Positions 6,142 through 32,164 of a DNA stretch of 35,278 bases are shown piece by piece. This DNA comes from a virus (taxonomy: Duplodnaviria; Caudoviricetes), in the IMG/VR virus record IMGVR_UViG_3300020519_000013, positions 1-35,278 of that record, one strand, 5' to 3'. The position numbers and the translations under genes were made by a program. The notes below the pieces were generated by a model, which saw only the letters and a program-made list of their open reading frames with translations, did no database searches and was not told the DNA's origin. Numbering within the stretch: position 1 is the first letter of the stretch; each line of letters begins with the position of its first letter.

Positions 6142-6696
6142 TTAATTTTCTCCTACAATAACATAATCTTTATAATACTCTAATAATTGAGAATTTAAAC
6201 TTGAAGCCGTATAGATTGAAAACGATATATTATTAGATATAACAATAGATCCAACTTTACATCTTCCATATCCTATTGGAACCGCAACATTTCTCATCGT
6301 AACGTTTTCGTAATTACTAAATAATCTAGAAGTTGTTTTGACATCTGTAGGAGATTTTGGTGTTAATAATTTTGTTATTAACATTTGAATTCCAGTACCA
6401 ATTAACATTAAAGCTATACCAATAGCTAATTCAGCGGAACCAAATATAAAAGGAACAACCTCAACTTTAGAATTTTTCTTTAAAATTGGAGAATTCAAAT
6501 ATTCTGGAGGCATAATTTTATCATCTACATAAATAATAAAATAACTTAAATATTCATTAAAAGTTCCTAAAGTTGATATTAATTTACTACTATTTGCCTC
6601 TATAGCTTCAAAAACTTCTAATACAGAAGAAACATTTAAGTTCCATTCTGTTTTTATGAAATCCTCAAAAACACCATGTAATTTAACATTAACCAT
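6142..6696 (-). CDS. Lambda gpI-like tail assembly protein (ubiquitin-like N-terminus)
   Basis: 'VKLHG', 'VEVVPFIFG', a hydrophobic segment, then 'VPIGYGRCKVGSIVIS' typical of gpI; lies between the K-like and J-like genes. Confidence 0.85.
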   Translation of the reverse strand: MVNVKLHGVFEDFIKTEWNLNVSSVLEVFEAIEANSSKLISTLGTFNEYLSYFIIYVDDKIMPPEYLNSPILKKNSKVEVVPFIFGSAELAIGIALMLIGTGIQMLITKLLTPKSPTDVKTTSRLFSNYENVTMRNVAVPIGYGRCKVGSIVISNNISFSIYTASSLNSQLLEYYKDYVIVGEN

Positions 6697-6700
6697 AGAC

Positions 6701-7033
6701 TTATTTACACTTTATTTCTTTAAATTCATCGGTATCTAATATATATAACAACATATTCATACCATGATATTTTTGATAATGAATATCTACATTAGAAAAA
6801 GACGCTTCAGATCTATGATTATGAAATAAATATTTTATTTTATATTTTTGTTTTATATTAAGATAATCTCTAGGAGAAACAACGAAATAATTTATAGAAT
6901 CAGGGTGTTTATTATCTACTGGTACAAAAGACAATTTCCCAGAATCTTCTACAATAAAACCACAGTTTTCAATTGAAGGGTTTTTATTGCAATATGACTT
7001 AATTTGATCTAGCAACTCAGGATTTATTATCAT
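6701..7033 (-). CDS. gpK-like JAB/MPN (JAMM) domain tail assembly protein, without NlpC/P60 domain
   Basis: 'ENCGFI' and 'HNH...S..D' JAMM-like motif. Likely true start is ATG 7033 (MIINPELL); the track start at 7102 overlaps gpL by 86 nt. Confidence 0.8.
   Translation of the reverse strand: MIINPELLDQIKSYCNKNPSIENCGFIVEDSGKLSFVPVDNKHPDSINYFVVSPRDYLNIKQKYKIKYLFHNHRSEASFSNVDIHYQKYHGMNMLLYILDTDEFKEIKCK
6705..6710 (-). promoter_or_regulatory. Putative late promoter motif GTGTAA
   Basis: aGTGTAAataagtctATG, 8 nt upstream of ATG 6696. Confidence 0.6.
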
Positions 7034-8084
7034 ATTGAAATGTCGATGGAAATGCACCAAAAGGTAAAGCTTTATTTGATACTGCATTACTATCTTTAGC
7101 AATATAATCTTGAAATCTTAATAAACAGCCTCTTAAAGTTTTAGAGCATTGATCCTGTTTCCATACATCTGTATTCATATCTGGTTGTTTATTAATAATA
7201 TCATTTTCAATACAAACATAAAAGTTTTTAGATTTGTTTGATAGATTGACGGTTGAAGCATTAGTTCCATTCGTTAACACATTGGGCAAATAATCTAAAT
7301 AAACAAAATCACCAGAATTATAAATCGCAGTTGGAGACCATTGACCACTATATCTCAATGTAGATAAATTATATGAATTATTCGCTAGATTAGTTTTATA
7401 ACTAGATAAAAATGTTTTATCATTTTCATCTGCTATAGGAATACCGACATCATAAGAATTTAAGGATAGAAAATAATTTTTACTCGGTAATGCATTAGGT
7501 GAATATTGAGATATAATTACAACTGGACCTTCATAATCTGAAGTATTTCCATAATTACACCCATAACATCTATAACACCAAGAACAAGTATCGTTTGTTA
7601 TTTTTCTTGCTGGTATGTTTAAATTTTGCAAATCAATTTTTGTTGCTAATTCAATTTCAACATGTTCTTTGTTTTCCAATTTTTTTAAATTTACAATAAA
7701 TTCATCAAAAGCTATATGAGTTTTAAAATTAGAAATACCGAATGGATTTATACCATTTTCAAAATTTTCAGAATCTAAATCTTTAGCCAAAATCTTTTTT
7801 CTATTAAAAGCGTTTCCAATTAAATCAGATCTATCTTTCAAAATATATGAAATATAATTATTTATATTTGCAATTTTTATTGTTGGTTTAGATTGTTTTC
7901 CATTTGAAGAAGATTCTATATTAGACAATTCACATGGTATAAAAATATAAGTTTGACCCTGAAAAATTATATCGCGTGAAAAATTCTTTGAACCATGAAA
8001 TCTTAGATAACCCTCCGTAGCTTCTAACTGTAGTTCAAAAAGGTCTAAAACGACATAATTATCTAATTTGAAAAAAGTATTCAT
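7017..8084 (-). CDS. Lambda gpL-like minor tail (tip) protein with Cys cluster
   Basis: 'LDLFEL', 'FQGQTYIFIP', 'KPTIKIAN', 'IPARKI', Cys motifs 'CSWCYRCYGC' and 'CSKTLRGC..RF', and 'LPFGAFP'. The conserved Cys residues of lambda gpL bind an Fe-S cluster. Confidence 0.9.
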   Translation of the reverse strand: MNTFFKLDNYVVLDLFELQLEATEGYLRFHGSKNFSRDIIFQGQTYIFIPCELSNIESSSNGKQSKPTIKIANINNYISYILKDRSDLIGNAFNRKKILAKDLDSENFENGINPFGISNFKTHIAFDEFIVNLKKLENKEHVEIELATKIDLQNLNIPARKITNDTCSWCYRCYGCNYGNTSDYEGPVVIISQYSPNALPSKNYFLSLNSYDVGIPIADENDKTFLSSYKTNLANNSYNLSTLRYSGQWSPTAIYNSGDFVYLDYLPNVLTNGTNASTVNLSNKSKNFYVCIENDIINKQPDMNTDVWKQDQCSKTLRGCLLRFQDYIAKDSNAVSNKALPFGAFPSTFQYDNKS

Positions 8085-12836: not shown

Positions 12837-13639
12837 AATGTATTTCTAAGTGGTGCTAAACGTTGTGTTATCGCTAAAGAACTTTGTAATAAACCATCTG
12901 TTGTTACATTGAAAGAACGAGATTCGATAACTCCAGAAATATTAAAAGTTTTCAAAAGATTAGAACTATAATCTTTTAAATATAATTCGCAATTAGTTGT
13001 CGTTCCTTGTATTTCTAAAACGTTTGATTTTTTTGGAAAATTGCCCTCAACAGAAATTGATTTCATTTTATTAGTTTTAGCAACTCTAAAAGGTGTTATC
13101 TGATCATTTGCAAAAAAAGGAATTCTATCCACAGATTCTGAATAATTAAAATTAAATATTTCTGAAAAACCAAAAACTTTATTTGTATCAATCAAATATG
13201 TATTATTAGCGTGTGATATTTCTGATAAGCTAGGATTTCTATTTGAATAAAATGGTCGCATATCAGTTGTACTATTCGTCGAATTTAATTTCCCATACCA
13301 GTCAAAGTTAGCTTTTAAAAGAATTGGTGAAAAATTTGATACATTAAAAGATATAGATTTTAAATAACAATCTGTTATTTTAACACCAGCAAAAATGCAT
13401 TCAATTGAAGACTCTAAATTTGAAGTTGGTTCTAGAAATGAAGGCAAAGATCCAGTTAAATAAAAATCTGTATCCAAAGATCCAACGATAGTATTTTCTG
13501 GCGCATATCTTAATAAAGATCCATCCGATAAAAGAATTGGCGAAATATTAGTATTCAATGAAAGCTGCACAGATTTCGAATAAAAAATATCATTATTAAT
13601 TCGAAAATCTATATTTTCATATTTTATATATTTACTCAT
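12833..13639 (-). CDS. Putative tail-tube-fold minor tail protein
   Basis: Alternating beta-strand pattern resembling the 304-aa and 445-aa proteins ('CYLKSISFNV', 'FNFNYSESVDRIP'); start/stop coupled within the tail operon. Confidence 0.5.
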   Translation of the reverse strand: MSKYIKYENIDFRINNDIFYSKSVQLSLNTNISPILLSDGSLLRYAPENTIVGSLDTDFYLTGSLPSFLEPTSNLESSIECIFAGVKITDCYLKSISFNVSNFSPILLKANFDWYGKLNSTNSTTDMRPFYSNRNPSLSEISHANNTYLIDTNKVFGFSEIFNFNYSESVDRIPFFANDQITPFRVAKTNKMKSISVEGNFPKKSNVLEIQGTTTNCELYLKDYSSNLLKTFNISGVIESRSFNVTTDGLLQSSLAITQRLAPLRNTL

Positions 13640-15435
13640 TAAGTTATAGTATATGCAATTGTTGAAACTACTGTAAAATCAACTGCTGTGCTTTTACCGC
13701 CAGTTGGTTCACATAATCTAAATTGTAAAAGTTGACCTGAATTAAAACTGGTTGATCCACTTATATTTGCTTTAGTTTTTGAATATATAACATTTGGATT
13801 TATAGTGTCAAAATAGCTTGCACCAATTATACCACTAGTAGGATAAGCTATAGGATCACTTGGTGGACTTACATAAAAACCCGTAACAAATTCACTTGGA
13901 ACCGCAGGATTATAAGTTGGAGTAATTACCGATATCTCAAATCTATATGAGCTTGATAATGCATCAGTATCCGAAGTAAAAATAGAAACTTTTTCTACAG
14001 AACCTGCATATGGAGTTATTGTAAAAGGAGCATGTAAATAATTATTTCCGCTTGGAATTATATCAGAATTAGGATTAATTGCGCTAAAATAAACATCAAA
14101 ACCAGTTACTCTAGTTTGATATGTTTGAATAAATTTCCCTTTACAATAACTATCACTACTAGTATAACTTCCATCAATATCTAAACTACCTGCTGGACTT
14201 AATTTTGCAACTACATCAGGAGAGATTCCACCATAACCATTTTTTACAAAAACAAAATAATCATTTAATGATGTAAATGTAGTATCATTATATAGATTAC
14301 CAATAGACCATTTTTGAGTATCAGGAGTGGCATCATATCTTGAAAATGTAACTAAACTATTTCTTGGTCCAGTATCGCCACCGCCAAAAGCTTTGTTACA
14401 AGCAATAACTACTTGACAATACCCTTGCGTATCCGTATTTTGAAATGAAGCTGGTGTACTATCAGTAGGATCTGTAGTTCTAACATCTAATTTATAAGTA
14501 GGCCCTGTAGTACCTAAACCAAGAAATCCGCTACCTGCAATAGAATATACTAAATTCTTTTCACTCAACGAACTTTCTGATCCAAAATATATTTTATTAG
14601 ACTGCATTCCATAATATGAAGTTGCAGTACTATTTTTATAACTTGCGTAAGACTGAGCGTTACTAGATTGAAATCTAGCTAATTGACCTATGCCACTGAG
14701 ATGCAATAAATATGCTGGAATATTATGTCCTATTCCAATTTTTGGCGCACTAACATTATTATCAACATATATTGCATTATATCCTATATTTACATCAGCA
14801 ATATTATTATAATTTAATAACAAAGGTTCATCGACAGCATTTGTTTTTATTTCTCCATTATAAGAATCAAAAATTAAAGCATTTCCAGAATTTTGAAATT
14901 CGACTAATTCTCCGCTAACTAAAAATTTTCTATTTAACGCTCCCGTATTATTTGTAATTGCAAAATTTCCACTTTGATCAATAACGAACAAATTTGAAAA
15001 GCTAGATCCACCATTAGTTGAAGATTCTAAATATAACTTAGTATCATTAGGTTTTTTGCTAAATTCATAATAAACATTTGGATCTGTTAAAGAAAAAGCT
15101 ATCTTTCTACCAGAATCTAATGTAGTTAATCTAATTTGTCCAGATCCATTTGTTGAAGTTAAATTGTCGTAAACATCAAAAGAAACGACTGGAGATCTTT
15201 GATTTATACCTACAAATCCATATCCGCCACTTATTGATAAACCATAATTTTCAGTATTTTCAAAGATAGTGAATCCTTCGGATGTTTGTGCGTAAAAACC
15301 TGTAAAAGCTTTTGAAATTTCTTCAGCGGTTATCTTATTATTATTGGTGGATGTCGAATCTGATATAAAAAATATATCACTTGAAACAACGTTTGATCCT
15401 AGTTTTGCTGGAAATGAAGCTAATGGTGTACTCAT
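13639..15435 (-). CDS. Putative tail fibre/spike protein
   Basis: Repeated 'VGINQRSP..SFDV', 'IGIGHNIP..LLHL' and 'LGLGTTGP..KLDV' motifs typical of trimeric beta-rich fibres; no S74 chaperone domain seen. Confidence 0.6.
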   Translation of the reverse strand: MSTPLASFPAKLGSNVVSSDIFFISDSTSTNNNKITAEEISKAFTGFYAQTSEGFTIFENTENYGLSISGGYGFVGINQRSPVVSFDVYDNLTSTNGSGQIRLTTLDSGRKIAFSLTDPNVYYEFSKKPNDTKLYLESSTNGGSSFSNLFVIDQSGNFAITNNTGALNRKFLVSGELVEFQNSGNALIFDSYNGEIKTNAVDEPLLLNYNNIADVNIGYNAIYVDNNVSAPKIGIGHNIPAYLLHLSGIGQLARFQSSNAQSYASYKNSTATSYYGMQSNKIYFGSESSLSEKNLVYSIAGSGFLGLGTTGPTYKLDVRTTDPTDSTPASFQNTDTQGYCQVVIACNKAFGGGDTGPRNSLVTFSRYDATPDTQKWSIGNLYNDTTFTSLNDYFVFVKNGYGGISPDVVAKLSPAGSLDIDGSYTSSDSYCKGKFIQTYQTRVTGFDVYFSAINPNSDIIPSGNNYLHAPFTITPYAGSVEKVSIFTSDTDALSSSYRFEISVITPTYNPAVPSEFVTGFYVSPPSDPIAYPTSGIIGASYFDTINPNVIYSKTKANISGSTSFNSGQLLQFRLCEPTGGKSTAVDFTVVSTIAYTIT

Positions 15436-15436
15436 A

Positions 15437-16351
15437 TTAACTATTTAGATAACCTTTATAACTTAAATTTACACTTAAAACATCGTCTGCTGATGTATTA
15501 AATTGCTGTGATACGAGTTTAACATTAGAAAAACTTTGATTAAAAATTGTAACCCCATTGTTTGCATTGAATCCTTCTATATCACTGGTTACTAAAGAAG
15601 TGTTCTGGAAAACTTTTCCTTTTATAACTATATTAAAATTTGTATCTGTATCATTAGTTAATATATTATATAATGATCTGCTTTGATAATCGTCTACTTC
15701 TAATGTGAAATTAGCATCAATTTCTATTGGAACATTTAATAATACTTCGCTTGGAATATAATTTGGAATCGGTGTCGTTGGTCCCGTTGGTCCAGAAAAA
15801 GAAACTCCACTTTGGTTCAAAGTATATACTGGTTGTTTTTGACAATTTATAGAATAATCAAAACTAGTTATCCTATTTGAAGAAGATCCGCTACAAGTCA
15901 ACACGATATCTTTAACTTGTGGCACGAATAACTCTGGTGGCTTGAAATTACCTGACGCATCTAAGCTTGGACCTAAGTCTCCATAAACTATTATATCCGC
16001 TGTTGTTGAAGGCACTTCACCAACCGAACACGATAAAGAAAAAGCATTTAAATAACCAGATAAAAAACCTAATTTTTTACCATTATAGTTTATACTTCCT
16101 TTAAAAGATTTAGCAGTTTTATTGGCATTTTCTCCAGTAAAAGGTAAAAAAGGATCATTATATAATAAATATTTAGCAATAGAAAAATTAGCAACCGGCA
16201 CTTCAGCAATTACTTGTTTATTGTATCCAACACCTATTGTTTTAATAGGTTCATAATTTATATTATAACTTCCATTAATAGATGTTATTCCAGAAATGGT
16301 TGTATTATTCAAATAAAATATATTTTCGTAATTAAGTAATGCGCTTTTCAT
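15437..16351 (-). CDS. Tail-tube-like minor tail protein (paralogue of the 445-aa tube protein)
   Basis: 'SGYLNAFSLSCSVGEVPSTTADI' aligns by eye with tube 'NGFISEYSFEASVGAIPTASVTV', and 'VPIEIDANFTLEVDDYQSRSLYNIL' with 'VPINMDVSISAIVSELQDKNLFDSL'; immediately downstream of the TMP. Confidence 0.6.
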   Translation of the reverse strand: MKSALLNYENIFYLNNTTISGITSINGSYNINYEPIKTIGVGYNKQVIAEVPVANFSIAKYLLYNDPFLPFTGENANKTAKSFKGSINYNGKKLGFLSGYLNAFSLSCSVGEVPSTTADIIVYGDLGPSLDASGNFKPPELFVPQVKDIVLTCSGSSSNRITSFDYSINCQKQPVYTLNQSGVSFSGPTGPTTPIPNYIPSEVLLNVPIEIDANFTLEVDDYQSRSLYNILTNDTDTNFNIVIKGKVFQNTSLVTSDIEGFNANNGVTIFNQSFSNVKLVSQQFNTSADDVLSVNLSYKGYLNS

Positions 16352-16352: not shown

Positions 16353-19300
16353 TTAATTTCTTATTCCTGCTAGCGAACCACCAAATTGCTTTTCTTTTCT
16401 TATAACCTCAGTAACTACAGCATACATTTTAGCATTTAAGTTTTTAGAAAGCTCAACATCTTGTTGTTGATAACTTGTAGTATTTGCGCCCATTTTTATA
16501 GTTCCGTCTCTTTGAACCGTTGTATTAAAATTAAACGAATTATTAGCATTCGTATTATTATTGACTGTAGAGCTGTTATTTCCAGCTGCCATTATAGAAG
16601 AACCGCCGCCTTGCATACCAGTTCCATATTTTTTAACTATTGTTGAATCATATAATCCACCTTCCATATAACCAGGAATCGTATCAGACAAACGAGAACC
16701 AATCAAACCGCCAGTTTGTCTTCTAAAGGGCTTAGAAACAGTAGATCCAAATCTTTGATACCAAGTTGGACCAACTGATGGACCAGAAAACAAAGCTTTA
16801 AATCCTGTTTGAGGAACTCCCCCAGTATAAACTCCAGTTGGACTTAGTAAACCTTTATCCATCAATCCTCTAATCGAACCCGATTCAGCCTGAGTTAATG
16901 GTGCGCTAGTTTGTAATTTAGCTGACAAATTTTGAGCTTTTGTAGCTTGTGCATTTGATCTTACATTTGAAACTCCTGCTCCTATAGCTATAGTCGCAGC
17001 AGCAGCAACTAATTGACCAATCATTGCTGCTCTTTGTTGCCTTTGTGCAAATCTTCGTTTTCTATCTTCTTCCATTTTCTGCTTTTGAGCATCTGATAAT
17101 TCTTTATATAAAGGACTATTATCTAGTCCTTCACTAGTCATATATTTTTCCATATTGGCAACAGTGTCTTGATCAGATCTAGAAGATGCTAAATCAAAAC
17201 CAAATGAACCTCCAGAAGCGAAACGAGGGGCAGCGCTAAAATTAAGAGTATCTAAAGCAGCAGGACCGCCCATTGCCATGACAGCATTTCTATTTAATAC
17301 ATATTCACCATTCTCAAGCAATGCTGGATATTTATCTCCAGAACCAGTTCCAGAAATATACATTCCAGATTGTGCGCGTATCGCACCGCCTTTTTGTGCT
17401 GTAAATAAATTTTCAAAACCAAAACCGCCAAGAATCTTTCGCGTACCTGCTTGCATTAATGTCGTACTTATGGAATCTAAGAAATTCGCAGCAATACCCA
17501 ACAAAGCGTCACTAAGATTATTTGACTCCTTTATAGCAGCTTTTATTCCATTAACCATACCATCGGCAAACATACCTGGAAGATCTCTTCCAAGTTTTGC
17601 CACCATTAAATCACCTTCATCATTTAAAGATGACAATCCAGCTCGTAATTGCAAGTTAAAGCTTCTAGCTTCTTGCAATCTTTTTATTTCAAGAGAATAT
17701 ACAAAATTAGCTGTTTTTTCATCTTCTTCGTTTTTCTTCTTCGATATAGCGGCAACGCTTTTTGCTTTTTCTATGTCTCTCAACGCTTGTTCGTTGTCTG
17801 CATTTAGAAAATTATTTTTATTTTTAATAAAATTTTCCAAAGCTTGAGCGCGGCTTTCAAAAGGTATAGTTGTGTCTTCTAAATTTTTACTTAAATTTTG
17901 CAAATTCAATAATGGCTCACCTGCATTTGTAGTTTTATTTAATCCTGCGGCGATGCTTACTAAATTTACATCTGATCTGATATTCTCTCTACGAAACGAT
18001 TCTTGTCTATTAAATCTTTCTGATTCAAAACGCTGTCTCGCAGCCTCAAAAGGCTTACCAAAAATTTCTGTTCGCTTGATAGCTTCCTCTCTTCCAATTT
18101 TACTTCTTTCATATATACCTTCAACATCAATTTGCTTTAAATCCATCATGTTATTGAATTTGATAAAAGCTGCTTCGATATTTTTTCTTATACGCGTAAA
18201 ATCTAGAACACCAACACCCAAACCATCTGCTAATTTTTTTGAATTTTCTCTAAGTTTCGATAATCCATCCACAAATTTTGAAAAATTTGTCAAAATATAT
18301 TGACCTTTAAATTCTCCTGTTTCTGAAAATTTTCTAAAAATCGCGCTTAATTGAGAAGCTTCTTCAAGAAGATCGTTTCTATTACTTTCTACATACGACA
18401 TCATGTACTCTATTTCTTTGTCTCTTTCTCTCGCGCTAGGTTGAGATGCTATTCTTTTTGCAAAATTTTGGATCACCTCGTCGCCTTTAAATTTTTCAAA
18501 AAAATCTATAGATTTAGCACCACCAGCATTCATATATTCACCAATAATTTTTTCCATATCAAACTGTCTAATCGTTCTTGTTCCCATTTCTGATTGAACT
18601 CGTCCTTTCAATTCTTTTCCTTTTGCAAGTAAAGAAGCGATAGCTTTACCCGTTTCACCATTAGCTCCTCCAAGAGCTTCGGTCATTACACCCGCACTTG
18701 CTAAAAACATGTTTAATTTTCCTAATGTTGCTTTAGTATTAATTTTTTGTATAGCGTTGTTAAATTCACTATCTAACACCCTTTGATTCATTTGTTTATC
18801 GTACAAAGCGTTATGTGCTGCCGCTTTTTCATGTGGATCTCGAAATGGATTTAAATTTTTTATACCTTCCAACATTACTTCTGCTTCCAAAGCTATTTTA
18901 CGCGTTATATGCATAAATATAAGCGCTATTTTATCTATTCCAGAAGTAAGATAATCAAAAAAACCTGTAAAACCTTTATTTAAATATTCTATTGTTTTTG
19001 AGAATGGAATGTCTTTTAATACACTTGTCATCAATGTTTTAATTCCATCTCCCAAGAAAACAAAAGCCGCTGAAACGTCTTCTGTAAAATTTAAAATTGT
19101 TTCAGATAAACTTTGAATTATTCTATCCATCATTGAAACTTCTTTACTTCCTGTAGAAAGTTTTTCAGCAGCGGATAAAGCGCTTACTTGAGAATCTGCT
19201 TTTCTATTTATCTCTAATATTGCATTTTCTAAACTTTTTAAATCAACTGGACTACCATCAGTTGGAATCAAATTTTTAAGATTTGATGTCGTTATTCCAT

Positions 19301-22300
19301 ATAAACTTCTCGCAAGATCAGCTCTTGCTAAATCAATCTCCTTACTGTCGCCGCCAGATTGAGAGATTGAAATCAAATTTTCTACACTAGTCTTATAAGC
19401 TTTTATTAAATCAGTTTGTTTATTAGCTGTATCTGAAATTTTTTCTTTCAATTCTCCAATTGTTAATTTAGCTGCTTTTGTTGCTTCTGAAAATGCTATT
19501 AAACCTCCAACAGCAGCACCTATTGCCGTACCCCAACCAGGTAGAATCATAGTTCCTATAGCAGCTCCAGTAGAAACTGATGTGACTCCGGTATTAGCTA
19601 AATTTTGTGTCATTCTTTCTTTTTCAGTTAACTCGTATCGTTTTTTATCTCCGTATGCCGCTTGAGATGCAATTGCTGAACCTAAGATTGGAGCAATCAT
19701 CATGGTTAATGGACTAGATCTAAAACCGAACGAGCTTCCTTTTGAAGTAGAACTATTATTTTTTTTATTATTTGATTGGATTGTATTGGTCGATGCTCTT
19801 TGAGCAGCAATATTTTTTCTAATCGAATCTCCAAGAGCTTTATTTGTTTCCGTAACAATATCTATTACTCCCGTGCTATTACTCAAACTCTTAGCTTCTA
19901 GTCTAATCGAAGTTTTTAACGCTTTCATTTGAGAAGCTGTTAAAGTAGTATCGGTTTCTAATTTATGAAGAGCAGTATTTAATTTATTAAATTGCGAAGT
20001 TTCAGCTTGCGTTAATGCGCCTAAACCACCAACTCCAAAAGCAGCATTGGGATCAACTCTTCCAAAGTTAGGAATGTATCCTCCACTCATCAATCCAGCA
20101 GCTTTTTGTCCTCTCATCGAATCGCTCAATGCATTACCTAAACCACCGTGATCAGCAATTGCGGAACTAAATGTTGGTTGACTGCTGTTTCTAATATGAG
20201 GGAAAGGCTTTGTATCAAAAATAGCTTTATTGCCGCTCATGCTTTCTTCTAAGCCCATTACTGCTTGTTTATAAGCAAAATTAGGAAGAAATGCTTTGGC
20301 GAAACCAGCGAAGCCGCCTTTTCTTTCAGAATTTATAAATTCATTTAATACCTTTGGATTGTTTAGCTTTGATAAATCTGTTTTTGGATTTGATAAAAAT
20401 CTTAATTCACCAGAACTTAAATTACGACCGATAGAAGATTCAATATCTTTTATCAACTTCATTAAGTCGCCAGAATAATGAACTTGATTTTTAGTCAAAG
20501 TGTCTACATCTATAAAATCAGCAAAATTAGGAACAAAACCTTTAGCAAATGAACTCCATTTCAAAGGTCCATAATTTTGTTCATTCCATTTTATCCATCC
20601 CTCGGCACCTCCAAAAACTTTTAATTCTTCTGGGCTTATTCCTCCAGGTATCTTATAAAATTGGTTTCCTTTTATAAATTTACTATAATATCCTTTTTCT
20701 AAAATAGCTTGTATACCAGATGATAATTGAACACTACCAAGATTTTTTAATTTATCCTTAATTTCTTGAGTATTCTTTGAACGCATCATGGAATCAACAT
20801 CTTCAACAGGAGAAAAAGCTGATTCAGGAACACCTCTAGATATAAAATTTTTCTTTAATTCTGGTGAAATAGCTTTATTGGTTTGCAATAATAATTTTCC
20901 ATTATGATAAGCATATTTAATTGCTCCAGCAGTAGGACCATCTATAGAATCCCAAGCTTCAGAATGGTATAAATCATTATAAATTCTACCATCTTTGAAA
21001 GCATAACCTTTATAAATATCAGTTCCATAAGCAAAATTAGGAACAAAACCTGACGCTGAATTCAAAATCATTTTCTTACTTGCAGCATTATATGTCCAAC
21101 GCCCCATCTTATCGTACATGGCTTTATTATTTTTATAATCGCCATAGAAAATTCCTTGTTCTTTGTATTTTTTCAATTTCTCCATTTCGCCAAGATTTTG
21201 AAGATTAGAAACACCAGCCAAATCAGATCTTAAAGCTGCATAATTAACTGCTCCTACTCCTTCTCCTCTTTTACGATAATCAGATAATTTAACCTGAGTA
21301 CCTATGTAACTATTTTTAATTAACCAATCTTCATAAGATTTTCTTAACAAACCTGTTCTTGATTTAATTTCTTTTTTGTCTACAAACTTACCAGATTCAG
21401 CGTAATTTTTAAGAAAATCCCAAGCAGATTTTGTTTCTGGATTACTAGACCAAAAAACACCTAAAACTTTAGAAAGTCTATCATAATTAACTTTCTTCAT
21501 TTTACCAGAAACTTTACCAGTATAAACAGCATCAGGATTTGGAACATATCTTGAATTTCCAAAGTTTTCACTCATTCCCCTTCCAAGCCCTAATGAAGTA
21601 GTTCTACCCGCGCTAGATAAATTTAAAGCTGCTGACTTAGCAGAACGTTGAGCAGCTTCATTAACATCACCTACTAATCTGGGATTTACTGAAGAAGCGT
21701 CAGGTATAAATACATTATTTCCTAATATGGACATAACCATATTATTCCAAGCTTCTTCTAACATATAACCATACAATCTCTCACCGGGTTTTCTGGCATT
21801 AGTGCCACTTAATCCAGTTCCTTCTTTGGGAAATATATCTCCAGGACCAGTTTTTGTTCTATAAAAATTAGCATTAACTTTTTTTCCATTAAAATTAGGA
21901 ATAAAACCACTTGCAGCAGCCATTGCTAAAAACGCAGGATTTTTTACATAACTATTTAATAAACTATTTGTTTCTGCGGACAATCCTTTTACAAGATCAG
22001 GGCTATTTTTGGCCATTTGAGAATAACTCGTACCAGCTAAAGGACCAAAAAGTTTTTTACCTAATTCTGAAGGTATTTGATTTTCATGACCTACTTCATT
22101 AAAAGCAATAATTAATTCTTTTAATTTTGCGGCTGCTGCGGGATTAGATTTGGATAGTGTTTCGTATTTTCTTGTTAATTCGCCAGTAATACTTCCTGGT
22201 AAATTCTTTTTTGGATAGCCTTTATATTCTATGCCTATACCAAATTCTTTTAACCCAGCATCTAACGCCGCTTGTTTTTGATTTGTTCCTGGTTGTAATA

Positions 22301-25148
22301 CATAGCCTCTTATCAAATCGTTTTTTACATTTGGTTGAGAAACTAATTGCATTGCTTTGAATGCAAAATCCTCATATAATGGAGCAAATATATTACTGTC
22401 TCCTCTCTCATCTGCTCCTTCAGCAGTGCTTTTGAAATTGATTTGTCTAAAAGTTTCTGTATCACTTGCTTTAGATATTCCCAAAGCAGGTTGAATAGCA
22501 TCAAAAGCAGGATTACCAAATTTTTTAAACCAAGGAATTCTTATTGCACTTGTAGGAGGAGCAAAATTAGGAATAAAACCTTTATTATAAGTCTGATATA
22601 AAGCATATCTACCTATATCAATATCATCATAACCATCATCATTAAATTGAGTTTGTTTTTGTTGGACTGCTGTTTCAATTGCTTTTTGTAATATTTTCCA
22701 ATTTCCTCCTGTACCTCCCGATTTAGATTCGACACCTGTAAATAAACTTGCGCCTTGTTGATTTATTGGTAATATATCAGATCTAGAATACTGTGAAGTA
22801 GAAAGTTGGAAATTATTTCCAAGTTTTTTAGCGACAAGAGATTCATATAAAGCGCCTCTAAAATTCCAATAATCACCATTATTCTTTTTCTTGAATTTAT
22901 CAAGCATTTGTGACTTGATATCTTTTTCTTGTAAACCAGCATAAAAACCAGATTGTTTTAATTTATCAAAAGCTCTATCATAAGAATCTTTAACTATTGG
23001 AGGAATTGGCGCATTATTTAGATAATCATTAAAATATATTCTTGATTTTTTATCTAAACGATCTTTACTAGTATATCTAATTCTTTGGACAGTTCCAGAT
23101 ACAGAATCATAAATGTTATTTACTTTACGATTTTTATCTAAACCCCCATCTGCTAAATTTTTATTTTCAAAATAAGCAGGATAACTAAAATCTTGAATAG
23201 TTTGTTTATCTAAATTTAATAAATCATTTTTAAATCCAAAATTTTTGTAAGCAAAATTAGGTATAAATCCACTATACATATATGGATCAACACCTGTTCT
23301 ACTTATGGCTTTTTGTCTATGTGCGCGACCAGCTTTTGAATTCGCAGGAGGATTAATAAAAGGTTGAGCAAAACCAGGAATATATTTAACATCTTCCGCA
23401 GTATTCATCACTCCACCAACAGGAGAAGATACAACTCTACCGGGAGCATAACCACCAGCTTGTGCGCCAACGACTTCAGCCATTTTTGTAGCTTTTGGAA
23501 TATAACCTCCTGAACGAGTAACCTGTAAACCGCGAGAACCAGCAACTTTAACTCCTTGACCTGATAATTGAGCTGCAAGTTGTTTTGCTAAAGCTGCTTG
23601 TTTCTGATATTCAGCAGTTTGCGCTCTGGCTGTTTGTAATAATAATTGAGCTTGGGCAGCTTGATTACCCGTCAAACCATCTAGAGCTTGCGCTACAGTT
23701 CCTTGCTGTGCCATGATTTGCAAAATAGATGCTTCAATATTTTTTCTATTTTGCGTTTCAGTTGTTATGCCAGCAATCTGAGGTAAAGCTTCACTAAGAT
23801 AAGTAAAAGAATTTTGTATTAATTTAAAAAGAGTAAAGAAAGCCGCAATAGCACCGGGACCAGCTATAACATTACGAATGCCTTTTAATAAACCATTTGC
23901 AAAAGTAGAACCAACTCCTTCTCCTTCGAGAACTTCATTTATACTTTCAATAAAAGATTTTAATTGCTCAGTACCATATTTAGCCAATGGTTCAAATGTT
24001 ACTTTGCCAATATTATTAGCTAATTGTTGAGTTGAAGTTGCAGTTTGCTTTAATAAAGCGTCAAGAGTTTGATTTAATTTTGCAGTTGCTACTTCAGCTT
24101 CATTTGTTGCTGATGCTCCTCTTTGTAAAGCTCCAGCATATGTACTTTGCGATTTATTTAAATCATTAACAATAGCTTTTAAGATATTAACTTGATAAAC
24201 ACCCGCAACTTGTTCTGATAACTGCGCTCTTTGAGCGTCAGCTAAACCTTTATAAGCTCCAGCAAAATTTTGTAATATTTGAACAGCAGGTAAAATATTA
24301 CCTTGAATATCTCTGACCGCAATATCAAAAGCTTCTAATTGATCCAAAGTATCAGTACGTTGTAAGCGAGTAAAAATTGTTTTTAATGCGTTACCAATTA
24401 CAGCGCCACCTCTTGCTGTGCTTTGTTGAGCTGAAGTAACCAACGCATTCAATTGATCAAGACTAACACCTGCTTCTTGCGCCGCTTGTCCTGTACGAGA
24501 CAACGCTTCCGCCAAATCCCCTGCACCTACAGCATAATCTTGTTCTACAGCAACTAGCTTATTTAAAATTTGAGTCGTAGAGATTCCAGTTGCAGCAAAT
24601 CCGTTTACGGTAGATGTCAATGCATCAACAGCATTTGCAGTGCTAATTCCCGCCAATCTTGTTAATGTCAACGCGTCTTTTGTTCTTTGAAGAGTTTCTT
24701 CAGCCTTTAAACCTTGACGAGAAAATTCAAGAGCAGCTTTAGAAGCATCGTCAAATGAAGAAGCTGTTAATTTAGTTACATTAAATAAATCTGTACTAAA
24801 TTTTTGTAACTGACTTGTAGTCAATCCAAATACGCGATTAATATCTGCAAGATTTTTTTCAACTTCAATTGTTACATTAGCTAATTCCTTGAAACTGCGA
24901 ATTACACCTCCAAGAACAGCAGTAGAAGCGCCGAATGCAATAACGCGAGCATTAGAAGCAGCGAGCGCAGCTTCGAAGTCTTTAACATCGCCCGTAATTC
25001 TTCCTAGTGGCTGAGAAAAAGCTCGTTGATTAATGCTTAGATTAATTTGATTATTCTGAGCGAATCTTTGATTATACGCTTGAACACCAGCTTGAATAGA
25101 AGCGGTTAATGCTGCTTGATTGGCTGCGACATTAATTTGAACTGCCAT
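16353..25148 (-). CDS. Tail tape measure protein (TP901-type core) with internal cassette array
   Basis: 2931 aa. Ala/Gln-rich N-terminus with 'EFSRQG', 'LAEALSRTG', 'GGAVIGNALKTIFTRL'; hydrophobic 'PGWGTAIGAAVGG'; lambda gpH-like C-terminal 'GDKYPALLENGEYVLNRNAV' and 'FASGG'. Sits between the chaperones and the tip genes. Confidence 0.93.
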   Translation of the reverse strand: MAVQINVAANQAALTASIQAGVQAYNQRFAQNNQINLSINQRAFSQPLGRITGDVKDFEAALAASNARVIAFGASTAVLGGVIRSFKELANVTIEVEKNLADINRVFGLTTSQLQKFSTDLFNVTKLTASSFDDASKAALEFSRQGLKAEETLQRTKDALTLTRLAGISTANAVDALTSTVNGFAATGISTTQILNKLVAVEQDYAVGAGDLAEALSRTGQAAQEAGVSLDQLNALVTSAQQSTARGGAVIGNALKTIFTRLQRTDTLDQLEAFDIAVRDIQGNILPAVQILQNFAGAYKGLADAQRAQLSEQVAGVYQVNILKAIVNDLNKSQSTYAGALQRGASATNEAEVATAKLNQTLDALLKQTATSTQQLANNIGKVTFEPLAKYGTEQLKSFIESINEVLEGEGVGSTFANGLLKGIRNVIAGPGAIAAFFTLFKLIQNSFTYLSEALPQIAGITTETQNRKNIEASILQIMAQQGTVAQALDGLTGNQAAQAQLLLQTARAQTAEYQKQAALAKQLAAQLSGQGVKVAGSRGLQVTRSGGYIPKATKMAEVVGAQAGGYAPGRVVSSPVGGVMNTAEDVKYIPGFAQPFINPPANSKAGRAHRQKAISRTGVDPYMYSGFIPNFAYKNFGFKNDLLNLDKQTIQDFSYPAYFENKNLADGGLDKNRKVNNIYDSVSGTVQRIRYTSKDRLDKKSRIYFNDYLNNAPIPPIVKDSYDRAFDKLKQSGFYAGLQEKDIKSQMLDKFKKKNNGDYWNFRGALYESLVAKKLGNNFQLSTSQYSRSDILPINQQGASLFTGVESKSGGTGGNWKILQKAIETAVQQKQTQFNDDGYDDIDIGRYALYQTYNKGFIPNFAPPTSAIRIPWFKKFGNPAFDAIQPALGISKASDTETFRQINFKSTAEGADERGDSNIFAPLYEDFAFKAMQLVSQPNVKNDLIRGYVLQPGTNQKQAALDAGLKEFGIGIEYKGYPKKNLPGSITGELTRKYETLSKSNPAAAAKLKELIIAFNEVGHENQIPSELGKKLFGPLAGTSYSQMAKNSPDLVKGLSAETNSLLNSYVKNPAFLAMAAASGFIPNFNGKKVNANFYRTKTGPGDIFPKEGTGLSGTNARKPGERLYGYMLEEAWNNMVMSILGNNVFIPDASSVNPRLVGDVNEAAQRSAKSAALNLSSAGRTTSLGLGRGMSENFGNSRYVPNPDAVYTGKVSGKMKKVNYDRLSKVLGVFWSSNPETKSAWDFLKNYAESGKFVDKKEIKSRTGLLRKSYEDWLIKNSYIGTQVKLSDYRKRGEGVGAVNYAALRSDLAGVSNLQNLGEMEKLKKYKEQGIFYGDYKNNKAMYDKMGRWTYNAASKKMILNSASGFVPNFAYGTDIYKGYAFKDGRIYNDLYHSEAWDSIDGPTAGAIKYAYHNGKLLLQTNKAISPELKKNFISRGVPESAFSPVEDVDSMMRSKNTQEIKDKLKNLGSVQLSSGIQAILEKGYYSKFIKGNQFYKIPGGISPEELKVFGGAEGWIKWNEQNYGPLKWSSFAKGFVPNFADFIDVDTLTKNQVHYSGDLMKLIKDIESSIGRNLSSGELRFLSNPKTDLSKLNNPKVLNEFINSERKGGFAGFAKAFLPNFAYKQAVMGLEESMSGNKAIFDTKPFPHIRNSSQPTFSSAIADHGGLGNALSDSMRGQKAAGLMSGGYIPNFGRVDPNAAFGVGGLGALTQAETSQFNKLNTALHKLETDTTLTASQMKALKTSIRLEAKSLSNSTGVIDIVTETNKALGDSIRKNIAAQRASTNTIQSNNKKNNSSTSKGSSFGFRSSPLTMMIAPILGSAIASQAAYGDKKRYELTEKERMTQNLANTGVTSVSTGAAIGTMILPGWGTAIGAAVGGLIAFSEATKAAKLTIGELKEKISDTANKQTDLIKAYKTSVENLISISQSGGDSKEIDLARADLARSLYGITTSNLKNLIPTDGSPVDLKSLENAILEINRKADSQVSALSAAEKLSTGSKEVSMMDRIIQSLSETILNFTEDVSAAFVFLGDGIKTLMTSVLKDIPFSKTIEYLNKGFTGFFDYLTSGIDKIALIFMHITRKIALEAEVMLEGIKNLNPFRDPHEKAAAHNALYDKQMNQRVLDSEFNNAIQKINTKATLGKLNMFLASAGVMTEALGGANGETGKAIASLLAKGKELKGRVQSEMGTRTIRQFDMEKIIGEYMNAGGAKSIDFFEKFKGDEVIQNFAKRIASQPSARERDKEIEYMMSYVESNRNDLLEEASQLSAIFRKFSETGEFKGQYILTNFSKFVDGLSKLRENSKKLADGLGVGVLDFTRIRKNIEAAFIKFNNMMDLKQIDVEGIYERSKIGREEAIKRTEIFGKPFEAARQRFESERFNRQESFRRENIRSDVNLVSIAAGLNKTTNAGEPLLNLQNLSKNLEDTTIPFESRAQALENFIKNKNNFLNADNEQALRDIEKAKSVAAISKKKNEEDEKTANFVYSLEIKRLQEARSFNLQLRAGLSSLNDEGDLMVAKLGRDLPGMFADGMVNGIKAAIKESNNLSDALLGIAANFLDSISTTLMQAGTRKILGGFGFENLFTAQKGGAIRAQSGMYISGTGSGDKYPALLENGEYVLNRNAVMAMGGPAALDTLNFSAAPRFASGGSFGFDLASSRSDQDTVANMEKYMTSEGLDNSPLYKELSDAQKQKMEEDRKRRFAQRQQRAAMIGQLVAAAATIAIGAGVSNVRSNAQATKAQNLSAKLQTSAPLTQAESGSIRGLMDKGLLSPTGVYTGGVPQTGFKALFSGPSVGPTWYQRFGSTVSKPFRRQTGGLIGSRLSDTIPGYMEGGLYDSTIVKKYGTGMQGGGSSIMAAGNNSSTVNNNTNANNSFNFNTTVQRDGTIKMGANTTSYQQQDVELSKNLNAKMYAVVTEVIRKEKQFGGSLAGIRN
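20062..23270 (-). repeat. Seven dispersed ~20-bp direct repeats encoding G(F/Y)(I/V)PNF-type motifs within the TMP
   Basis: Plus-strand copies: 23251 gcaaaattaggtataaatcc, 22561 gcaaaattaggaataaaacc, 21889 ttaaaattaggaataaaacc, 21031 gcaaaattaggaacaaaacc, 20521 gcaaaattaggaacaaaacc, 20275 gcaaaattaggaagaaatgc, 20062 ccaaagttaggaatgtatcc. Spacings 690, 672, 858, 510, 246 and 213 bp. Confidence 0.92.
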
Positions 25149-25176: not shown

Positions 25177-26172
25177 TTATCCGAATATTTTCATCATATC
25201 ATCCATACTTAATGAACCACCTTTCTTCTTAGCTTCGTCAGCCAAAGAAAGAGTTTTTTGACCTTTAGCCTTTAAACCTATATACTCAAGATCTTCAGAT
25301 GTTGCGCCAACAATAGAAGTTGCTTGATTTTCTTTATTGTTTTTATTTTCTATAGCTTTTTTAGCGTTTTCATTCGCATTAACATAATCAATAATCTTGT
25401 CAGGATCATTTTTAATTTCTTGAGGCATTTTATCGTTCTGCTGAAATACATTCTTAAAAAATCTAGCATAAATAAGTAATTTTACTTGATTATAAGTAAG
25501 TTCACATACTGATTTACCAAAGAATTCAGTAGGATTTTCTGCAAAAGGCATGTATAAATTAAAAAAATCTTGTAAAACTAAATATTGAATCGTGTTGTCA
25601 TTTATATTTTTATATACTTCTGAATATTGTTTTATGATGCAAGTTAGAGTTTCTGAGTCAATATTATCAAATTGATCTTCTTCAAAAGCGACCATACTTA
25701 GTTTTTTATCTTTATATAAACACTTAAGAATATAAAAATCGTTAACTCTTTCTTCAGCATAACTTTCGGCAGTTCTATTAAAAAAGGCTGCTTTAGTATT
25801 TTTTAAATCGTATAATCTTTTTTGTGCCGATTCGATATCTGCATTTATTCTTAATATTTCTGATTTTAAATATAATGTTTTTTTTTGCTTTTGAAAGTTT
25901 TCTATTAAATTTTCTTCTTGTTTAATTAAAGATTCCTGCCGATTTGTCCACTGTTTTTCTTCGATCAAGCGTTTCAAAGTTTCATCGTTTGTAGGAACCC
26001 CTCTGCTTTTAGCCTCTTCAAAATAATAATCGTAGATCTGATCAATATCGACCTGATCTTCTAAAGACAAGTGCTTTAAATAAAAAAGATTCTCTAAAAC
26101 TTTAATTTCAGAGAATCCATTTTTAATATCCCTAAAAGCTTTCTTATATTTACTCTGTTGGGACTGTTCCAT
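25177..26172 (-). CDS. Putative tail assembly chaperone (gpT-position protein)
   Basis: Charged helical protein directly upstream of the TMP; own ATG with GGAG upstream. Function inferred from position only. Confidence 0.5.
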   Translation of the reverse strand: MEQSQQSKYKKAFRDIKNGFSEIKVLENLFYLKHLSLEDQVDIDQIYDYYFEEAKSRGVPTNDETLKRLIEEKQWTNRQESLIKQEENLIENFQKQKKTLYLKSEILRINADIESAQKRLYDLKNTKAAFFNRTAESYAEERVNDFYILKCLYKDKKLSMVAFEEDQFDNIDSETLTCIIKQYSEVYKNINDNTIQYLVLQDFFNLYMPFAENPTEFFGKSVCELTYNQVKLLIYARFFKNVFQQNDKMPQEIKNDPDKIIDYVNANENAKKAIENKNNKENQATSIVGATSEDLEYIGLKAKGQKTLSLADEAKKKGGSLSMDDMMKIFG

Positions 26173-26929
26173 CTATTTCTCCAATGATTCTATCGAACTC
26201 TTCTTTTTCAGTATTGCTAGTAAAAAACCAATAACTAATGATACTTGCTAACTTACTATAACATTTTTCATAAATCTCATTCTTATTTTCTTCGTAATCA
26301 AACATGGCCGCTTCTTTAGCTTCGAAAGTTTTACCTGGAAATAGCCATTCGAACTCTGCATTTTTCTTACTATTATCCTTAAATTGAGTAAGATTAAGTA
26401 CATACCATAGAATAGCTCTGTTCTGAGCTTTGATATCAGCAGTATGATTAAACAAAGTCATATAACTAGTTTCTTTTTCAATAAGCGTTTTGCGTCTTTG
26501 TAAAATTTCAGAAGTAACAGATTCGATCTTCTTTTTATAGTCTTCATCACGCTCTGATTCTGGCTTCAAATTAAGAATCGTAAGTCTGCTTTGTAGATCC
26601 CCAATTTCTCCAGCGGCAGAAACCATTACCTTAGCATCAGCATCGCTAATCAAACCACCAGTATCGCTGTACTTATTTAGTAACATTGCTTTTGTCAAAA
26701 TACCATTTCTGATGCATCTGCTCATTTCAATACTGAATTCCATGTCGGCTTCTTGCATTTGTTTTCGATTTGGCTGCAAAATATTTATTTCTACTGGAAT
26801 CTGTTTCTTTACCTTTTCTTTATAAGTGCGAGTAACTGATTCACCTTGTTCATTTGTCACCGTTTCAGTCTTGTCTTCTTCGACCTCGGCATTTTTAAAA
26901 ATATTGAAACTATATAGAGACTTTGACAT
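26150..26929 (-). CDS. Putative tail assembly chaperone (gpG-position protein)
   Basis: Charged helical protein, first gene of the minus-strand tail operon. Function inferred from position only. Confidence 0.5.
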   Translation of the reverse strand: MSKSLYSFNIFKNAEVEEDKTETVTNEQGESVTRTYKEKVKKQIPVEINILQPNRKQMQEADMEFSIEMSRCIRNGILTKAMLLNKYSDTGGLISDADAKVMVSAAGEIGDLQSRLTILNLKPESERDEDYKKKIESVTSEILQRRKTLIEKETSYMTLFNHTADIKAQNRAILWYVLNLTQFKDNSKKNAEFEWLFPGKTFEAKEAAMFDYEENKNEIYEKCYSKLASIISYWFFTSNTEKEEFDRIIGEIDGTVPTE

Positions 26930-30873: not shown

Positions 30874-30879
30874 TTACAC
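30874..30879 (-). promoter_or_regulatory. Putative late promoter motif GTGTAA
   Basis: aGTGTAAgtaatatatATG, 9 nt upstream of ATG 30864. Confidence 0.6.
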
Positions 30880-31329
30880 TTTTTTATTCATCTTATGAAC
30901 TATTTCGTTGTAGATCATTTTAGAATAATAGTTGCTATTCTTGCTTTTGGCTTCGACATCAAACTTTTTCGGCGGTTCGAATACCTTGTTCGTATCTTCA
31001 TATCTTGATTCATCAATAGTATTCATGAAAATTATATAATTAGGATTAAACTGATCTCTAGTTTTCTGTAACGGACATACGAAATCGCAAATAATTATTT
31101 CATTATATTGGCCGTACATATCAGCCAAATCTTTCATTCTTTTAGCTTGGCGTTCGCGACCAGCTTCGCTGAAGTCCCAGTCATTGAATTGCTCACGAAC
31201 TTTGTCTGCATTTAACCAATGGCACTTATAATTACTACTTAAAAGATAAAACAAATCTGCTGCTAATGTGGTTTTACCAGATCCCGGTAAACCCATGATT
31301 AATATCTTTAAAAACGAACCAATCGGCAT
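30874..31329 (-). CDS. cysC: Adenylylsulfate (APS) kinase-like P-loop kinase
   Basis: 'ILIMGLPGSGKTT' Walker A, 'LNADKVR', 'DFSEAGRERQAKR', 'DFVCP' and 'FEPP' match the short phage-type CysC pattern. Confidence 0.8.
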   Translation of the reverse strand: MPIGSFLKILIMGLPGSGKTTLAADLFYLLSSNYKCHWLNADKVREQFNDWDFSEAGRERQAKRMKDLADMYGQYNEIIICDFVCPLQKTRDQFNPNYIIFMNTIDESRYEDTNKVFEPPKKFDVEAKSKNSNYYSKMIYNEIVHKMNKKV

Positions 31330-31339
31330 AATATATGGT

Positions 31340-32164
31340 ATGGTTGAAAAGATATTTTTTCAATGTTCATTACCCCGCAGCGGTTCAACATTGTTGCAGA
31401 ATTTACTAGCGCAAAATCCTGATTTTTACGCCACACCAACAAGTGGGTTGATCGAAATCTTTCTTAATGCCAGAAATATATATTCTACAAATATAGAATT
31501 CAAGGCTCAAGATATAAATGTTGTTGAACCAGCGTTCAAAGCTCTTTGCAAAGAAGGCATGTTCGCATACTTCAACGCCATCACCGATAAGAAATATGTT
31601 ATTGATAAGAGCAGAGGTTGGAGTGTGACTTATGACTTTTTAAACTGGTATTATCCAGAACCAAAGGTTATTGTTATGGTTCGCGATCTGCGAGCAGTAG
31701 TCGCAAGCATGGAAAAAAAGTGGCGACAACACCAAAACATAGATGCTGGTCTTCAGAACTGGAACGAACTTCGCAACACAACTGTAGATAAGCGAATCGA
31801 TTACTTTTTGTTACAAGCGCCGCCACTTGCAGTGAGTATGGATGTATTATACGACACAATCATGCGTAAGTTAAGTAAAAAGTGTTTATTTATTAAGTTT
31901 GAAAACTTTACAGCTAATCCTCAAAGAGAAATGCAGCGAGTTTATGAATATCTTGAATTGCCATTTTATCAACATGACTTTAATAATGTTGAACAAAAAA
32001 CTTTTGAAGATGATCGTATGCACATTCCTTTTGGCGATCATACAATCCAAAAAGTTATCAAGCCCGTTCCAAATGATTACATTGATGTGCTAGGCAAGCA
32101 GAACTGCGATAATATTTACAATAGATTTTCTTGGTTCTACAAAGCTTTTAGCTACGATTATTAA
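31340..32164 (+). CDS. PAPS-dependent sulfotransferase family protein
   Basis: 5'-PSB loop 'LPRSGSTLL', 'DKSRGW', 3'-PB 'MVRDLRAVVASM', 'FENFTANP'. Likely start is ATG 31340 (MVEKIFF); the track start at 31268 overlaps cysC. Confidence 0.85.
   Translation: MVEKIFFQCSLPRSGSTLLQNLLAQNPDFYATPTSGLIEIFLNARNIYSTNIEFKAQDINVVEPAFKALCKEGMFAYFNAITDKKYVIDKSRGWSVTYDFLNWYYPEPKVIVMVRDLRAVVASMEKKWRQHQNIDAGLQNWNELRNTTVDKRIDYFLLQAPPLAVSMDVLYDTIMRKLSKKCLFIKFENFTANPQREMQRVYEYLELPFYQHDFNNVEQKTFEDDRMHIPFGDHTIQKVIKPVPNDYIDVLGKQNCDNIYNRFSWFYKAFSYDY

Follow-up and report, generated by a model that had tools for sequence, protein, structure and literature searches.

A tape measure protein (TMP) encoded in a 35,278-nt viral DNA fragment (IMG/VR record IMGVR_UViG_3300020519_000013; the whole stretch is called the window) contains an array of domain cassettes fenced by a short GFIPNF-type peptide, and these cassettes are exchanged and reordered at the 21-nt motif among related phages. 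The general layout is coil, bookend A, a variable slot of predicted nucleases, a fixed core domain that is itself a predicted nuclease, a slot of zero to four further domains, bookend B, and coil. TMPs are usually seen as proteins that measure the tail and form a channel, carrying one fixed enzyme at most; the ruler described here is a fast-evolving conflict locus, in which dozens of domain families, most of them without a database match, are traded in wild lake populations. The array is probably injected into the host, whether cut or uncut. The fuller explanation developed below, a cargo bay ejected with the ruler into the next host, whose enzymes would act before phage gene expression after release by cutting at the motif, seems to us evenly poised between right and wrong.

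The tape measure gene and its motif

Profile matches identify the window open reading frame (ORF) as a siphophage TMP of the TP901 type, with PhageMin_Tail (PF10145) at 90.4 bits (cut-off 33.2; E 1.8e-25) and the TIGR01760 tape measure family at 112 bits (cut-off 28.8; E 2.7e-32); its presumed roles in tail length and ejection are taken from this class. It is the longest gene of the tail module and lies upstream of lambda-type tip genes (M-, L-, K-, I- and J-like). The source record is a 35-kb fragment rated 25% complete, implying a genome of about 140 kb. The window or parts of it occur in 24 listed runs, comprising 23 freshwater or lake metagenomes and one aquatic metagenome, and the hints to the host are one homologue filed under Verrucomicrobia and one locus inside a Flavobacterium bin.

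Seven G[FY][IV]PNF-type motifs start at TMP residues 627, 857, 1081, 1367, 1537, 1619 and 1690, giving spacings of 230, 224, 286, 170, 82 and 71 aa, with a related GGYIPK at residue 548, exactly as the initial annotation had described. About 0.0008 matches would be expected by chance from the TMP composition, and the DNA form of the motif matches four times in the window versus none in 100 shuffles. Across 563 copies, the G, P, N and F residues are 98–100% conserved while codons vary; judged from these alignments, the motif is constrained at the peptide level. A DNA-only anchor was considered and rejected: the motif Pro codons are biased to CCT (144 of 180, versus a 46% background), but nearby conserved prolines are biased too, and variation in the Gly, Ile and Ala codons also counts against it.

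Layout of the array among relatives

Homologues were collected with query residues 430–700, and the best 120 of 186 proteins were split at the motif into 441 units, which fall into 37 clusters by single linkage and make up 67 architectures; a few of the clusters consist of units fused by decay of the motif between them. Splitting at the motif had been proposed as a check by the initial annotation, and cassette number and identity indeed vary while the flanks are fixed. The first motif falls at residues 601–631 (sd 4), and the array spans 388–1,122 aa in 100 near-complete proteins. The 71-aa last unit, bookend B, is present in 102 of the 120 homologues, and all but one of the 102 arrays ending with it contain the core unit (c2 or its relatives). 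Within these 102 arrays, each of 29 other families lies either strictly before the core (13 families) or strictly after it (16). The window array runs bookend A, c12, c2, c8, c14, c11, bookend B (Table 1), with c2 as the one fixed core among four variable cassettes. The cargo had at first been counted as six units; its 71-aa unit, like the 80-aa unit in front, proves to be a conserved bookend, and its second unit is the fixed core. In distant relatives, bookend A (the 80-aa unit before motif 1) carries the full motif on both sides.

Homology among bookend A, bookend B, an alternative bookend of distant TMPs and the C-terminal glycine-rich module was not significant (hhalign, iterated HMM), and the likeness of the bookends and the C-terminal module is one seen by eye (a helix Glu and N-x-x-E/Q). 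For the idea that the bookends pair to loop out the array, a predicted bookend A–bookend B complex scored 0.02 versus a mark of 0.32, in a run whose controls did not fold.

A scan of viral contigs with a 20-nt form of the motif gave at least 145 loci from about two thirds of the collection. Of the first 80 loci (flanks partly overlapping), 79 belong to ORFs that are 1,287 aa or longer and hold at least two motifs, and 75 have a TMP or bookend marker. Several contigs (L061, L069, L077, L083 and L119) encode giant TMPs in which at least two motif-fenced arrays lie apart from each other, each close to a unit of the bookend type; within 2,600 aa, L119 has seven units. A 3,547-aa TMP (L050:6378-17021) has three similar GNAT-like units in its array, two of them clearly duplicated. 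One protein, P0117, has bookend A and one motif with no cargo, followed by low-complexity sequence with decayed PNF-like words, possibly an emptied array. The part of the TMP behind the array (window residues 1690–2931) measures 1,061–1,584 aa among homologues, independent of array length (Spearman 0.10), and the homologues have several different C-terminal ends.

Cassettes are exchanged at the motif

Architecture changes among TMPs whose backbones are nearly identical: only 26 of 124 pairs with at least 98% identity over the N-terminal 626 aa share the same one. The nearest neighbour of the window TMP (98.7% N-terminal identity) has neither c14 nor c11, and its slot-1 domain is a different one. 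When mapped on a quick maximum-likelihood tree of 69 backbones, the label for slot 1 requires 43 changes (shuffled mean 47.0, minimum 10), which shows lack of linkage rather than an event count, since the backbone may itself recombine. At the DNA level, ends of high-identity blocks (at least 92%) within the array fall between –15 and +36 nt of a motif start in 233 of 258 cases from 49 genes, where 11% would be expected. Two contigs share c2 and c8, the stretch between motifs 2 and 4, with the window at 99.5%, and four cassette pairs were found in both orders. The polymorphic payload array with conserved flanks that the initial annotation envisaged is therefore borne out, with turnover exactly at the repeat.

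The same exchange is visible within lake populations. An in-frame joint that skips 756 nt, exactly c14 plus c11, with 21 shared letters was present in all four of the lake runs checked (24 listed); the shorter side of this joint covers 193 letters in one run and only 24–27 in the other three, and the same junction occurs in contigs L015 and L033. The whole array is tiled by lake metagenome contigs (run X6) that overlap at motifs. No single metagenome piece spans the whole array, so that the exact cassette combination on one molecule rests on the window's own assembly. For the motif and the junctions, an assembly artefact is ruled out by the block ends across genes and the lake-run joints.

Predicted nucleases in slot 1 and the core

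Structural modelling suggests that the core cassette c2 is a PD-(D/E)xK nuclease of the restriction-endonuclease fold. Only four columns, E63, G85, D100 and K113, are invariant across 29 core sequences reaching down to 20% identity; E63, D100 and K113 correspond to TMP residues E926, D963 and K976, which are accompanied by E974. The c2 model (pLDDT 78, pTM 0.78) shows a helix, three strands, helix, strand order. The best Foldseek matches are R2 retrotransposon proteins (E 0.029), followed by several endonucleases of viral and bacterial origin, and in a wide structural search nearly all of the top 50 chains are PD-(D/E)xK nucleases, judged by their titles (Z 3.2–4.5), the neighbours including NucC (Z 4.5, 118 residues at 3.7 Å), Card1, Hjc and CdiA-CT. 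No free-standing homologue of the core nuclease was found among 7,997 candidates scored.

The slot-1 cassette c12 is a candidate PD-(D/E)xK nuclease, with E, D and ExK invariant in all eight family members, a weak Atlas lead to Tox-REase-7 (0.83) and dN/dS of about 0.3. A loose E..D..ExK pattern proved uninformative, being matched by 35–75% of shuffled units of nuclease-type families; only alignment-invariant residues were therefore used for nuclease calls. The units had been described as largely unrelated to each other, which does not hold for the first two, as they share the nuclease-type residue pattern. Across relatives, slot 1 is mostly nuclease-type.

Domain repertoire and selection

The five inner units contain 9–11% Lys, versus 4.4% in residues 1–545, and are rich in Lys, Tyr, Asp and Gly, in agreement with the Lys/Tyr/Asp-rich character first ascribed to them; 81% of 339 cargo units have a pI above 9. 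For the five window cassettes, nothing credible was found in Pfam, PADLOC, PHROGs or NCBIfam and there was no PDB sequence match, nor did c8 give an Atlas lead. Among 19 chosen pairs in a comparison of family kinship, a relationship of c14 to c9 or c27 was not supported. Cassettes of relatives do match Pfam families, namely SNase (E 1.4e-8 and 2e-9), GNAT (E 6.7e-8), GHKL ATPase (E 3.8e-5), cytidylyltransferase (E 1.3e-4) and DUF7178. Other listed units in relatives are presumably, by their motifs, of kinase, P-loop, ART, HAD, HExxH peptidase and methyltransferase types. The expectation of enzymatic domains within the array is thus supported by predicted nucleases in the window and by SNase, GNAT, GHKL and nucleotidyltransferase domains in relatives.

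These domains could in principle be inert spacers that only tune tail length, and the range of array lengths would indeed amount to about 50–150 nm of tail. We consider this highly improbable, as all five cassettes are under purifying selection (dN/dS 0.14–0.52 in the more diverged comparisons, with c14 from one pair), catalytic-type residues are invariant, unrelated domains are swapped at equal length, and slot order is strict. The natural length variants offer a test of tail-length measurement when a third of the ruler consists of enzymes.

Signs of virion delivery

The cargo is devoid of cysteine. Taking one member per family, there are 0 cysteines in 6,974 residues, versus 57.6 expected from 239 other ORFs of the same loci, mostly tail genes, only six of which are cysteine-free. 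All units together contain three cysteines in 71,939 residues, and 81 further units none in 21,947. That enzymes of many origins all lack cysteine would fit a chain stored unfolded outside the cell and crossing the periplasm. In addition, hydrophobic segments occur before the array in 83 of 108 proteins and behind it in 92, and inside it in only one.

Free-standing homologues of c14 (206–524 aa, 31–39% identity) provide a second indication. The 206-aa homologue on contig L203 begins with the leader M-x-x-K-D-Q-I-L-L-E-x-x-Y, common to 7 of 28 ORFs that are otherwise unrelated. By analogy, this leader is likely to be a head-targeting signal that marks candidate injected proteins of another large phage. 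Both the cysteine-free cargo and the leader-tagged twin of c14 fit virion delivery. ORFs sharing the leader lie at L203:427-9339 and also on L204–L206; among the leader-tagged genes, an 87-aa ORF (L203:1135-1398) is one that we take, from its sequence pattern, to be ubiquitin-fold-like. No immunity gene was found directly beside the TMP gene, the same tail gene being downstream in 47 of 47 loci and the same gene upstream in 34 of 35, and no orphan cassette was found in 49 TMP loci.

These data also bear on two other explanations. Selfish in-frame homing would have the nucleases cut cassette-less alleles during coinfection, with the motif as a landing site and the other domains hitch-hiking. 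Such a process would account for a mostly nuclease-type slot 1 that is nearly random on the backbone tree, for exchange ending at a conserved site and for the coexistence of variants in one lake. However, the core nuclease is not patchily distributed but fixed (101 of 102 arrays), many cassettes are of GNAT, GHKL, transferase or kinase types, and the junctions have no splicing residues (no Cys); the loss of cysteine implies selection tied to the virion route, and both a free-standing core homologue and orphan cassettes are missing from the sets above. Homing as the whole explanation is accordingly improbable. Still less credible, in our judgement, is a producer-cell polyprotein, from which the array would be excised during tail assembly to act late (e.g. 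in host DNA degradation) or to be packed elsewhere in the virion, leaving the remaining 1,860 aa alone to set tail length. Three to six folded domains of 20–30 kDa cannot fit a 3–4 nm lumen (lumen and copy number from the available text of PMC12617516), and in T5 and lambda, TMPs are cleaved during assembly, both of which speak for excision. On the other hand, late cytoplasmic enzymes need not lose cysteine, excision would split the ruler mid-way, and there would be no reason for fusing late enzymes to a low-copy ruler.

Proposed release of the cargo by cutting at the motif

In the cut-cargo explanation, the array would be made as part of the TMP and kept unfolded, by tail chaperones and then in the 3–4 nm tube; the producing cell would thereby be spared as well, with no need for immunity genes. 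On infection, it would cross the envelope between the two bracketing hydrophobic segments and refold in the cytoplasm. Recognition of the motif would fall to a protein, most probably to a protease or to a bookend that processes itself; the motif's use as a crossover site would be a by-product. The nucleases might then attack nucleic acid of the host or of competing phages, GNAT, ART, kinase and similar modules could alter host proteins or defence signals, and an arms race would drive the rapid turnover of cassettes. If injected, the arrays constitute a catalogue of candidate pre-early effectors (counter-defence, host takeover, phage–phage competition) that can be found by a six-letter motif.

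The motif is kept at every boundary, even where it flanks units of 59 aa, and cutting is the simplest reason for this. An invariant Glu lies 7–12 residues behind the motif Pro in both bookends, and some virus coat proteins are known to cleave themselves at an Asn-Phe bond that has a Glu nearby; the bookend Glu and the motif Asn-Phe are thus a lead toward self-cleavage, to be taken as a lead only. A more specific form of the explanation, for this family of freshwater siphophages, holds that the small bookends are an autoprotease freeing injected cargo at GFIPNF, possibly at Asn-Phe, and that the same 21 bases trade weapons. We regard it as doubtful; if true, it would open a new way of delivering pre-early effectors and supply a portable tag with which proteins could be loaded into non-contractile tails. 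In the window, the sole peptidase candidate seen is the gpK-like tail-tip protein, whose HxH-x7-S-x2-D pattern we take to be JAB-type; its gene, 133 aa long, covers just the JAB-type part and lacks the second domain that lambda gpK has. Units with HExxH in distant TMPs are only occasional cargo among the matches listed. Intein or Hint processing was rejected, as the TMP has no Cys, the motif Asn precedes Phe, and Pfam gave no Hint match; intein junctions have Cys or Ser at the start and end in Asn followed by Cys, Ser or Thr.

It is also possible, though less probable than cutting, that the array is injected and stays uncut, working tethered in the full-length TMP at the inner mouth of the ejection channel. 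The motif would then serve bookends, chaperones or the tail tube as a place to dock or register, and offer incoming domains a safe place to land. There is precedent in the RNA polymerase of phage P23-45, which is present in virions within full-size gp96 (available text of PMC10770324). Hydrophobic segments that bracket the array, the negative search for a protease and tolerated decay of the motif at some boundaries agree with tethering, and turnover, enzyme content and cysteine loss fit it equally well. Against this, tethering would not call for a near-invariant heptapeptide at every junction of two domains, let alone around 59-aa units, and nucleases held on a tether would lie in the way of the phage DNA as it enters.

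Several observations count against the cut-cargo explanation. The 120 TMP homologues have no conserved HExxH and no protease was identified, while the bookends match no known family or structure in Pfam, PADLOC, PHROGs, NCBIfam or PDB sequence searches. Seven cuts in a ruler inside the tail would have to spare the control of length and the formation of a channel. Some boundaries tolerate a decayed motif, in the forms VNIPNF, GNIPNF and GFIPNL, and the first motif-like copy is GGYIP without NF in most close relatives. The absence of cysteine extends over the whole TMP, and taken alone it does not put the cargo in the cytoplasm. On the enzymatic side, the c2 fold match is weak in absolute terms (best Foldseek E 0.029; all Z below 5), a joint model of bookend A, c12 and c2 reached a pLDDT of 46 with no fold match, three of the five window cassettes (c8, c14 and c11) have no assigned function, and 55 of 63 further units have no Pfam match at E 0.005, the other eight including four above the curated cut-off. 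Finally, no isolate was found, and the window phage has no relative among 50,697 GenBank phage records.

Relation to known systems

The comparisons in this section draw on the available portions of the cited papers. The closest resemblance is to polyvalent proteins (Iyer et al. 2017, PMC5512222), in which a single polypeptide unites many unrelated enzymatic domains (ART, kinase, GNAT, metallopeptidase, methylase). They are described as capsid-packaged or delivered by a type IV secretion system (T4SS), and injection with the DNA and processing have been proposed for them; for one locus, that study suggests variation of cassettes by recombination, and the available main text never says 'tape measure'. 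Like them, the TMP array combines at least two unrelated activities at the level of the family (in the window protein itself, only the nuclease class is assigned) and draws variable architectures from a shared domain pool (67 in 120 TMPs). Unlike them, its carrier is a tail TMP instead of the capsid or T4SS route, it has no built-in zincin (no conserved HExxH in the 120 close homologues), and its domains are all peptide-fenced, in ordered slots, with PD-(D/E)xK nucleases dominating. To the extent that these sources allow (polyvalent-protein passages also in PMC7824862), the array appears to work like a polyvalent protein by another route.

Among tail proteins, gp96 of Thermus phage P23-45 (PMC10770324) is a fusion of TMP and virion RNA polymerase, found in the virion and acting on pre-early genes. 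There too a large folded enzyme rides in the TMP, but it is one fixed N-terminal enzyme, uncut in the virion, with no repeats and no turnover. T5 and lambda have TMPs that are ejected and cleaved (PMC10038345, PMC12617516), the maturation cleavage of T5 pb2 and lambda gpH taking place in the tail by a catalyst that these texts leave unidentified (PMC10038345, PMC10713586, PMC12617516). In T5 pb2, the cut splits off a C-terminal piece with enzymatic activity, which has been proposed to be ejected and perhaps has to refold. These proteins differ in having one cut near the C-terminus, a cell-wall enzyme, no internal array and no polymorphism. The repeated, near-invariant site in the present TMPs makes the long-open question of the TMP-cutting catalyst directly testable.

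T4 internal proteins are diverse, fast-changing injected counter-defence proteins united by a capsid targeting sequence (PMC3012670), which the shared leader of the free-standing c14 form resembles; they are separate genes packed in the head, whereas the array is one tail polypeptide. With MuF and polymorphic toxins (PMC5576092), the array shares variable toxin-like domains on a virion protein, including restriction-fold toxins (the Tox-REase-7 lead). MuF proteins, which belong to the head modules of temperate phages, carry a single toxin at the C-terminus and are paired with an immunity gene. Unlike polymorphic toxins, the array is internal, followed by 1,061–1,584 aa of TMP, with no adjacent immunity gene and no orphan cassettes. 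A study of large aquatic phages (PMC12619734) proved unrelated to the TMP array. No peptide-fenced TMP array was found in the literature, motif strings included, in a search that covered little subscription literature and no supplements.

Features of the window and neighbouring genes

Table 1. Positions of the TMP, its parts and associated genes in the window.
Feature	TMP residues	Position	Strand	Description
Two conserved genes directly upstream of TMP		25177..26929	minus	No family match
TMP	1–2931	16353..25148	minus	One ORF, 2931 aa, cysteine-free
Conserved N-terminal coil	1–545	23514..25148	minus	Hydrophobic segment at aa 426–444
Bookend A	548–626	23271..23507	minus	Opens with degenerate GGYIPK; conserved; invariant E and N-x-x-E
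Motif 1	627	23250..23270	minus	GFIPNFA
Cassette c12 (slot 1)	634–856	22581..23249	minus	Variable; predicted PD-(D/E)xK nuclease; E769, D791, E807, K809
Motif 2	857	22560..22580	minus	
Cassette c2 (core)	864–1080	21909..22559	minus	Predicted restriction-endonuclease-fold nuclease; E926, D963, E974, K976; fixed position
Motif 3	1081	21888..21908	minus	GFIPNFN
Cassette c8	1088–1366	21051..21887	minus	Variable; very basic, net +17; motif-fenced in distant TMPs too
Motif 4	1367	21030..21050	minus	One end of 756-nt indel in lake populations
Cassette c14	1374–1536	20541..21029	minus	Variable; free-standing homologues in other phage contigs
Motif 5	1537	20520..20540	minus	
Cassette c11	1544–1618	20295..20519	minus	Variable; small
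Motif 6	1619	20274..20294	minus	AFLPNFA; other end of 756-nt indel
Bookend B	1626–1689	20082..20273	minus	Conserved; dN ~0 at dS 0.2–0.5; not cargo
Motif 7	1690	20061..20081	minus	GYIPNFG
Segments behind array	1814–1886	19491..19709	minus	Hydrophobic, glycine-rich
C-terminal glycine-rich module	2584–2650	17199..17399	minus	Common TMP module; ends PRFASGG; matches several PHROG TMP families
Lambda-type tail-tip genes		6142..7102	minus	gpI-like ubiquitin-fold and short gpK-like, HxH-x7-S-x2-D

By position, the two genes upstream of the TMP gene are likely to encode tail assembly chaperones. Between the TMP and the gpL-like gene lie four consecutive genes (304, 598, 268 and 666 aa; window positions 10836–16351) where lambda has one, gpM; only the 666-aa gene matches Phage_min_tail, and the 304-aa gene is far more variable among relatives (38–100% identity) than the gene upstream of the TMP (63–100%). 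At the other side of the window, adenylylsulfate-kinase-like, sulfotransferase, glycosyltransferase-like and FkbM methyltransferase genes (30874–34907) adjoin the tail module and possibly serve modification of virion or surface glycans.

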